Source of the DNA: an uncultured Bacillales bacterium
GTDB taxonomy: Bacteria; Bacillota_I; Bacilli_A; RF39; UBA660
DNA length: 64,000 nt
Direction of reading: 5' to 3'
NCBI GenBank assembly: GCA_946536225.1
Contig: CAMNEE010000002.1
Span: 239,523 to 303,522, forward strand
Part shown: positions 23,201-23,598 of the stretch, in pieces
How the letters are laid out: each line of letters opens with the position of its first letter
Numbering within the stretch: position 1 is the first letter of the stretch
The notes under the pieces: model-generated
The model's database searches: none
What the model saw: the letters and a program-made list of their open reading frames with translations, nothing else
What the model was told of the DNA's origin: nothing
Made by a program: the position numbers and the translations under genes

Positions 23201-23230
23201 TTGACATGCTAATAAAAAATCAATTATAAT
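23201..23230 (+). promoter_or_regulatory. Consensus sigma-A promoter for the 23257 gene
   Basis: TTGACA (23201-23206), 18-nt spacer, TATAAT (23225-23230). Confidence 0.6.
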
Positions 23231-23256
23231 TGTTTTAGAAATGAGGTAGGAAAGAA

Positions 23257-23598
23257 ATGTTAGCAATAGAAATATCAACATTTTGTACACAAACAAAAGA
23301 ACTTCTTAGCTTTGTAGGCTATATATTATTAATCTTCAAAATTATTATTCCTATAATAATTATTATTTATGGAATGATTGATTTTGGTAAAGCAGTTGTA
23401 GCTGAAAAAGATGATGATATTAAGAAAAGCGCTAAGTCTTTAGGAAGAAGAGCAATTGCTGGTATAATTATTTTCTTTATTCCAACTATCGTAACTTGGG
23501 TTTTTGGACAAGTTTCAACATGGGGTACAGACCACACAGAATTTAAAAAATGTGAAGATTGTTTATTAAGACCAAATTCTGAAGATTGCAAAGGCTAG
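23257..23598 (+). CDS. Small two-TM membrane protein with a Cys-rich C-terminus (113 aa), unknown family
   Basis: Two hydrophobic helices flank a charged loop AEKDDDIKKSAKSLGRR. C-terminal KKCEDCLLRPNSEDCKG. Has its own promoter and terminator. Confidence 0.5.
   Translation: MLAIEISTFCTQTKELLSFVGYILLIFKIIIPIIIIIYGMIDFGKAVVAEKDDDIKKSAKSLGRRAIAGIIIFFIPTIVTWVFGQVSTWGTDHTEFKKCEDCLLRPNSEDCKG

Follow-up and report, generated by a model that had tools for sequence, protein, structure and literature searches.

Small hairpin pilins of the VirB2/TrbC/TraA type, which serve conjugation in Gram-negative T4SSs, need high expression, are linked to VirB3, VirB4, and VirB6, and have variable, exposed termini around a conserved loop. 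VirB2/TrbC pilins typically carry a long signal peptide that is cleaved. The members of two further Pfam families, PF18895 (T4SS_pilin) and CagC (PF16943), are hairpins of about 70 residues in which two TMs flank a charged cytoplasmic loop, and we know of no PF18895 protein that has been shown experimentally to polymerize. A 2025 review described VirB2 and VirB5 as absent from Gram-positive T4SSs, with the Patescibacteria as the sole exception. In the Patescibacteria, a VirB2-like pilin array belongs to an essential chromosomal T4SS that mostly lacks a relaxase (Wang 2023; Quinonero-Coronel 2025, PMC12102498). The PF18895 model was also used to call these pilins, and most Patescibacteria with VirB2 homologues have no cell-wall hydrolase. 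Small TM proteins encoded near VirB4/VirB6 analogues are found in Mycoplasma ICEs as well (Mbov_0395, a "pilin-like conjugal transfer protein," MMCAP2_0566, and Mbov_0396). Because pilin-like proteins in Firmicutes and Mycoplasma elements are already recognized by Pfam and NCBIfam, the system described here is not a new category.

The 113-residue protein analyzed here, which we call mini, is encoded in a 64-kb stretch of DNA (the window). A scan with one genome per species identified relatives of mini in at least 455 genomes. Almost all were MAGs, under the labels Bacilli bacterium, uncultured Tenericutes, or Candidatus Coprovivens; the last of these is placed in GTDB order RF39, and we refer to the lineage, to which the window probably belongs, as RF39-like. 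The library that we searched contained no literature linking RF39 with a T4SS, VirB4, or a pilin.

The closest parallels to the RF39-like system were in the Patescibacteria and the Mycoplasma ICEs. Like the Patescibacteria, the RF39-like bacteria are monoderm, uncultured, and small in genome, and they carry a chromosomal MPF-FATA-like T4SS near replication genes, with several divergent VirB2-like paralogues per cluster and no relaxase (none detected in the RF39-like clusters). The RF39-like cluster differs in that it belongs to another phylum (Bacillota, class Bacilli) and encodes a wall hydrolase, a TadZ/ParA-like partner, and cadherin-like adhesins. As in the Mycoplasma ICEs, mini is a small TM protein of a low-GC lineage (wall-less in Mycoplasma, small-genome in the RF39-like bacteria) whose relatives are encoded near VirB4/VirB6 analogues, and the HMM matches between the two groups were weak but reciprocal. 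The Mycoplasma proteins are encoded by mobile ICEs, which also carry integrases and relaxase-type functions, whereas the RF39-like cluster occupies a fixed site beside dnaD-dnaI.

In the case of the protein itself, mini shares with VirB2/TrbC/TraA the small hairpin, the need for high expression, the VirB3/VirB4/VirB6 linkage (in relatives of mini), and variable, putatively exposed termini around a conserved loop. Unlike these pilins, it had neither a long cleaved leader nor any sign of cyclization, and no sequence similarity to the family was detectable. Its motor genes were not adjacent in the window, and because the host is a monoderm, an outer-membrane core complex like that of the Gram-negative systems is not involved. 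The two-TM hairpin of about 70 residues and its charged cytoplasmic loop are shared with PF18895 and CagC. The mini family differs from PF18895 in its two tails, which the 71-position model does not cover (the N-terminal one has an invariant Cys, the C-terminal one CxxC...C), and in that most short members have no signal peptide.

The mini cassette and the predicted hairpin

The features at the mini gene were as follows.

23201 to 23230, plus strand: SigA/sigma-70-type promoter, with -35 TTGACA at 23201-23206, an 18-nt spacer, and -10 TATAAT at 23225-23230 (12/12 match)
23243 to 23247, plus strand: Shine-Dalgarno sequence GAGGT, 9 nt 5' of the ATG at 23257, read from the sequence
23257 to 23598, plus strand: mini, a predicted VirB2-like (PF18895-related) membrane hairpin of 113 aa, based on predicted TMs, alignment, and dN/dS
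23621 to 23652, plus strand: intrinsic terminator with a 9-bp stem, a GAAA loop, and a T-run (RNAfold dG -10.9)

The original prediction named TTGACA-18-TATAAT as the top promoter of the window, and this was borne out by our analysis, as the 12/12 match in front of mini was the single instance of a perfect TTGACA-N16-18-TATAAT in the 64 kb. The chance expectation for such a match in the window was 0.29, and 23% of shuffles contained at least one; thus, the single perfect promoter was weak evidence when taken alone. Related loci outside the window are designated by L numbers, and synteny was counted over 83 of them. A 10-12/12 promoter ended 23 to 40 nt 5' of the homologous start codon in 81/83 loci, and its conserved form was TTGAC[A/T], 17 to 18 nt, and TA[T/A]AAT, with a spacer and flanks that diverged across loci. 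Thirty loci had a perfect consensus anywhere in 16 to 20 kb, and it was placed before the mini homologue in 28 of them. A hairpin plus T-run followed the stop codon at no more than 35 nt in 59 of the 82 loci scored, compared to 0 to 8 of about 80 control windows. A Shine-Dalgarno-like motif was also present 5' of the chosen start in related loci, which is weak support because the start was picked partly by this motif.

The conservation of the promoter and terminator across related loci indicated that these signals are real and that mini is a conserved monocistronic cassette with predicted strong expression. The promoter-gene-terminator cassette is autonomous, and it is conserved in about 80 species. 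An Rfam scan detected no RNA families in 23000-23800. The G+C content was about 28% over the whole window, with no compositional anomaly at the mini locus.

Translation of the ORF confirmed the predicted 113-aa hairpin with a charged loop and a CEDC...EDCKG tail. The protein consists of an N-terminal tail (residues 1-17, with Cys10), TM1 (18-40), a charged loop (41-66; AEKDDDIKKSAKSLGRR), TM2 (67-84), and a Cys-rich C-terminal tail (85-113, with C99, C102, and C111). The AF2 model contained helices at residues 14-48 and 52-86 (pLDDT of about 80 to 87) and a short C-terminal helix, with an overall pLDDT of 76. AF2, hydropathy, and charge counts all yielded two TM helices and a short charged cytoplasmic loop; specifically, the loop carries seven Lys/Arg residues and the two tails carry one and four. 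In longer relatives of mini, a conserved FC motif is preceded by a Sec signal peptide and extracellular domains. The loop charge and the Sec signal peptide of these longer relatives placed the N-terminal tail outside, the loop inside, and the C-terminal tail outside, and mini is thus predicted to insert N-out/C-out without a cleaved signal peptide. Cleavage after helix 1 had been suggested as a check, and helix 1 did not turn out to be a cleaved signal peptide: just 17 residues precede TM1, including the invariant F9 and C10, and there is no long leader.

A search of a large protein index yielded 38 close homologues of mini, and a profile search of 1.84 billion representatives (50% identity) yielded a family of 9407 proteins at an E value of ≤1e-3. 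The residues that were invariant in a family alignment of 35 sequences were C10, K28, P32, G39, D42, G44, R65, P76, C99, C102, and C111, and short family members usually had exactly four cysteines. We infer that C10, C99, C102, and C111 join the two external tails, either via disulfides or via a metal site.

The tails and the core of mini evolved at very different rates. Relative to its homologue in the congeneric locus L086, mini was 77% identical, compared to 90 to 98% for its neighbors. The dN/dS was 0.20 overall and 0.09 in the core; the tails had dN values of 0.25 (N-terminal) and 0.45 (C-terminal) at saturated dS. The tails were thus the fastest-evolving part of the locus, and the helices and loop were strongly constrained. 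Similarly, three human-gut strains (L087, L088, and L089) had VirB4 proteins that were 100% identical and mini homologues that were 72 to 73% identical, with differences mainly in the C-terminal tail. Fast tails beside an identical VirB4 form the pattern expected of an abundant surface-exposed subunit.

Family assignment of mini

The original prediction likened mini to VirB2/TrbC-type or Flp-like pilins, a holin, or an immunity protein. The VirB2-like part of this analogy stood, via PF18895, and the Flp, holin, and immunity parts were supported by neither family nor context. The HMM evidence was mixed in the case of PF18895. The match of mini to this model (17.8 bits, E value of 0.0037) did not reach the Pfam gathering threshold of 26.6, and its match to CagC was sub-threshold as well. 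Among relatives, PF18895 recurred: it was matched by 10 of the 35 family members at an E value of ≤0.01 (best, 1.8e-6) and by 36 of 102 sampled representatives at ≤1e-3 (best, 1.1e-7), and it was the only specific Pfam family that recurred in the latter sample. CagC was matched by 4/35 family members. Two mini homologues, P0027 and P0028, carried a precomputed PF18895 assignment. In NCBIfam, mini and its family weakly matched small proteins of conjugation systems, from Mycoplasma ICEs (including the pilin-like Mbov_0395) and from pLS20; the Mycoplasma matches were all far under the curated cut-offs.

Searches against canonical pilins and structures were negative. In Pfam, mini did not match PF04956 (VirB2/TrbC) at an E value of ≤1, and hhalign detected no similarity between mini and A. 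tumefaciens VirB2 (probability, 0.1). A PDB profile search with the family alignment produced spurious rhodopsin helix matches only (E value of about 0.06). Foldseek returned nothing from the PDB at an E value of ≤0.001 for the AF2 model, a search that was uninformative because the model is a bare helical hairpin. No PHROGs family was found for mini or its three upstream neighbors.

Three candidates were rejected. The Flp-type pilin lacked an Flp_Fap/TadE match and a G/XXXXEY motif, mini has two helices, and no Tad genes were present at the locus. For a holin, there was no Pfam or PHROGs holin match, and the neighbors are dnaD, dnaI, and trmB rather than phage genes. For an immunity protein, there was no Pfam, NCBIfam, or PHROGs immunity family and no bacteriocin gene nearby. 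What these readings share with mini is size and two hydrophobic helices only; TadA/B/C and prepilin peptidase genes were also lacking nearby, and the gene is located in a housekeeping chromosomal context and, in relatives, in T4SS clusters. We regard a holin, bacteriocin-immunity protein, or Flp-type pilin as extremely improbable.

Among the 100 best representatives of the family, about half (within P0279-P0427) were 200 to 490 aa in length. In these long proteins, a Sec signal peptide and a fused extracellular domain precede the hairpin domain. A few of the fused domains are enzymes, namely a GDSL lipase, a C39 peptidase, or an alpha/beta-hydrolase or esterase. Anchoring or display of enzymes at the cell surface may thus be a further role of the hairpin domain.

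Upstream module genes and the T4SS cluster of relatives

The gene order in the window is RNase J, dnaD-like, dnaI, g410, g183, g199, g347, mini, and trmB. The four genes upstream of mini were as follows.

19719 to 20951, plus strand: g410, a putative 410-aa surface protein, from a weak PF12733 (Cadherin-like) match and TM/Cys positions
21033 to 21524, plus strand: g183, a 163-aa paralogue of g199 with a predicted N-terminal TM anchor and two Cys residues, from sequence
21534 to 22133, plus strand: g199, a 199-aa protein with a predicted N-terminal TM anchor and an extracellular domain with invariant C85 and C138, from sequence
22130 to 23173, plus strand: g347, a TadZ/ParA-like cytoplasmic protein of 347 aa, from its two-domain architecture

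The first module gene, g410, is directly 3' of dnaI, and its homologues opened the cluster in 39/83 loci. Its product runs from a signal peptide and a Cys-rich N-terminal domain through a Pro/Thr-rich linker and cadherin-like beta-sandwich repeats to a TM anchor at the C terminus. The g183 and g199 genes are tandem paralogues whose products are 25% identical, and homologues were present in 58 to 60 of the 83 loci; profile searches identified no Pfam or PDB relative of this family, for which a VirB8-like, TadE-like, or pseudopilin-like role would be conceivable. The g183 start is TTG 20973 in the mechanical ORF and ATG 21033 according to gene callers.

Several T4SS-complete clusters (L004, L084, and L087-L089) had one TM-anchored two-Cys paralogue, compared to two in the window. 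In 57 loci, a 77- to 84-aa Cys-rich protein was encoded between two TM-anchored paralogues (e.g., L085:8041-8289 and L084:3320-3553). Its N terminus was very conserved, MK[DE]A[TS]GELSMTAVAVVAIAAI..., and resembled a pilin-type or class-III-like leader. This gene is absent from the window, where the gap between g183 and g199 is only 9 nt (21524-21534).

The g347 protein has a receiver-like N-terminal domain, a disordered linker (residues 127-175), and a MinD/ParA-fold C-terminal domain. This is the two-domain architecture of TadZ/CpaE from Tad pili (PDB 3fkq, E. rectale), in which an atypical receiver-like domain is joined to an atypical ParA/MinD domain. The label "TadZ-like" given to g347 in the original prediction was therefore fair at the level of structure. 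At the level of sequence it found no counterpart: g347 had no Pfam, NCBIfam, or PDB sequence match, and no other Tad genes were present. The Walker A motif of g347 is also degenerate. Instead of KGGxGK[ST], the conserved sequence is xNxTxHAGA[ST]T, in which both Walker A lysines are gone; a scaffold role for g347 is thus more probable than ATPase activity. A g347 homologue was immediately upstream of mini in 63 to 64 of the 83 loci.

In most RF39-like relatives, the cluster is located beside dnaD-dnaI and continues past mini into T4SS genes. Next after mini comes another pilin-like gene, whose product has a signal peptide, and a complete RF39-like cluster contains three VirB2-like paralogues. 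Downstream of mini, a VirB6-like gene (polytopic, 700 to 940 aa) was present in 46 of the 83 loci, a TcpE/VirB3-like gene (105 aa) in 34, and VirB4 in 29. The cluster also contains a TraC-like protein of 187 aa and the 596-aa VirB4 (AAA_10, P-loop_TraG), which NCBI names VirB4 family protein, and the distal genes encode an M23/lysozyme hydrolase, a C39-like peptidase, and a VirD4 coupling protein. The full cluster is about 19 kb, between dnaI and VTT/RmuC where the flanks were visible. Pfam detected no relaxase or integrase in the full clusters, which look like a fixed chromosomal MPF-FATA-type system, not an ICE.

Two side observations concern these clusters. The VirB4 proteins (loci L004-L083; e.g., L004:12514-14310) were 73 to 96% identical between species, an identity that is unusually strong for a T4SS ATPase; in the same species, DnaI was about 51 to 66% identical and g347 and mini were 35 to 60% identical to those of the window. 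Among the three human-gut strains, most cluster genes were 97 to 100% identical. A C39/C70-like peptidase (621 to 655 aa) was 56% identical and the next gene (231 to 248 aa) 33% identical between L087 and L088/L089, and the same two genes were 97 to 99% identical between L088 and L089 (L087:14971-17543, L088:14971-17678, and L089:14971-17678). This variable pair resembles a polymorphic effector/immunity pair inside the T4SS cluster.

Together, these data make it reasonably likely, in our judgment, that mini is an abundant VirB2-like (PF18895-related) subunit of a chromosomal Gram-positive-type T4SS, located at the surface or in the channel. The original prediction had proposed a major subunit or membrane adaptor on the basis of placement after the TadZ-like gene. 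The linkage to g347 and the T4SS context in relatives agreed with that proposal, and the absence of motor genes from the window did not. In such a system, the strong promoter would supply a large membrane pool of mini subunits, from which a VirB4/VirB6 machine would extract subunits into a surface-exposed polymer or channel lining (i.e., a pilus-like structure or a conduit). The Cys-linked tails would form the outer face of the structure, and the TadZ-like g347 may position or scaffold its assembly. Counting against the pilin reading are the PF18895 match below the cut-off, the unmatched VirB2, the non-specific PDB and Foldseek results, the lack of motor genes nearby, and the missing long cleaved signal peptide. 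The exclusion of VirB2 from Gram-positive T4SSs in the 2025 review and the fact that polymerization is not known for any PF18895 protein count against it as well.

Some of the same evidence bears on a non-polymerizing role, in which mini is a small inner-membrane component of the T4SS, an adaptor or stator like the TcpD/TcpE-, PrgF-, or pLS20_p028-like proteins. The weak NCBIfam matches were spread over several small conjugation membrane proteins and not just the pilin-like one, canonical VirB2 similarity was not found, and Gram-positive T4SSs are generally held to be without pili, all of which would fit an adaptor. However, the recurrent Pfam matches were to PF18895 and CagC, and a promoter and terminator of its own, conserved in about 80 species, suggest that mini is made at a stoichiometry well above that of the machine genes. 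In addition, tails that are hypervariable despite an identical VirB4 fit an exposed major subunit, not a buried adaptor. We consider the adaptor role unlikely.

The truncated cluster of the window

Between dnaI and trmB, the window contains only g410, g183, g199, g347, and mini. Homologues of the VirB6-like, VirB3-like, VirB4, hydrolase, and VirD4 genes were not found in the 64 kb, and the same five T4SS genes were not found in the equivalent loci of the window's clade. The five module genes followed by trmB were also the arrangement in the closest relatives (L085 and L086) and in L008, L014, and L023. In about 15 more distant, L024-like loci, the five genes were followed by 2 to 3.6 kb of unrelated genes and then trmB. 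Locus L065 was the single case of a full T4SS at the dnaD-dnaI position in which g347 is also close to that of the window. The full T4SS at this position indicated that the truncated state is derived. More than 7000 relatives of VirB4 were found in the protein index, and none of the 120 matches listed was on the window's contigs. As the motor half is not adjacent, either the genome encodes the motor at another place or the module of five genes does not depend on it.

Independence from a T4SS would mean that mini, g347, the two TM-anchored paralogues, and the adhesin form or anchor a surface structure as an envelope module. Such a module would account for the persistence of the five genes by themselves in the window's clade, and the clade-wide conservation of the motor-less arrangement (L085, L086, L008, L014, L023, and the roughly 15 L024-like loci) is consistent with it. 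The perfect promoter was kept, and all five module genes are under purifying selection: relative to L086, the dN/dS values were 0.20 for g410, 0.14 for g183, 0.14 for g199, and 0.09 for g347 (neighbor dS of about 0.4), a range of 0.09 to 0.20 that also includes mini. Furthermore, many fusions in the family use the hairpin as a C-terminal anchor of secreted domains. On the other hand, the five genes are contiguous with the T4SS core in most species, L065 has both the dnaD-dnaI position and the full T4SS, and the motor genes could be elsewhere, given that our view covers 64 kb of the genome. The helices and loop of mini are also as conserved as in T4SS-complete species, which suggests the same partners. 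We view an independent envelope module as rather improbable, and somewhat more so than an adaptor.

Decay was the other way to account for a truncated cluster, namely that the five genes are a remnant of a lost secretion system without present function. The 77- to 84-aa Cys-rich gene is missing from the window, and the VirB6-like gene is split in L065, which would also be in line with decay. The selection data argued against it, as the dN/dS was 0.09 for the mini core and 0.09 to 0.20 for the five genes at a dS of about 0.4. All of the invariant residues of mini are retained, and the promoter, Shine-Dalgarno sequence, and terminator are intact. A decaying remnant is, in our estimation, highly improbable, and even together with a holin, immunity, or Flp-type protein it would be very improbable.

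If mini is a VirB2-like subunit, as we favor, a broader proposal can be made, which we put forward tentatively and think unlikely to hold in full. RF39-like Bacilli would have a vertically inherited, relaxase-less (none detected) chromosomal T4SS with VirB2-like pilins and would be the second monoderm lineage with such a system after the Patescibacteria; in the window's sub-lineage, the pilin module would have lost its coupling to the VirB4/VirB6/VirD4 motor and would act as a surface structure of its own. A family that overlaps T4SS_pilin in at least 455 gut Bacilli species bears on the conclusion of the 2025 review that Gram-positives have no VirB2. If mini forms a surface polymer, then a T4SS that bears a pilus may serve these abundant bacteria of the gut and rumen for purposes beyond plasmid transfer; contact, uptake, or antagonism would be possible uses, in parallel to the epibiotic Patescibacteria. 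The truncated locus of the window is a natural experiment on the dependence of the pilin module on the VirB4 motor.

Two observations concern the surroundings of these loci. In L065, the VirB6-like gene is present as two ORFs, of 332 and 465 aa, that overlap (L065:8485-10858); the split could reflect a frameshift, an assembly error, or early decay. In the window, a run of uncharacterized genes 3' of trmB (24410-28039) is syntenic across the clade and encodes a 216-aa lipoprotein-like protein, a 364-aa acidic low-complexity protein, a 107-aa protein, a 131-aa YtxH-like protein, and a 359-aa TM protein.
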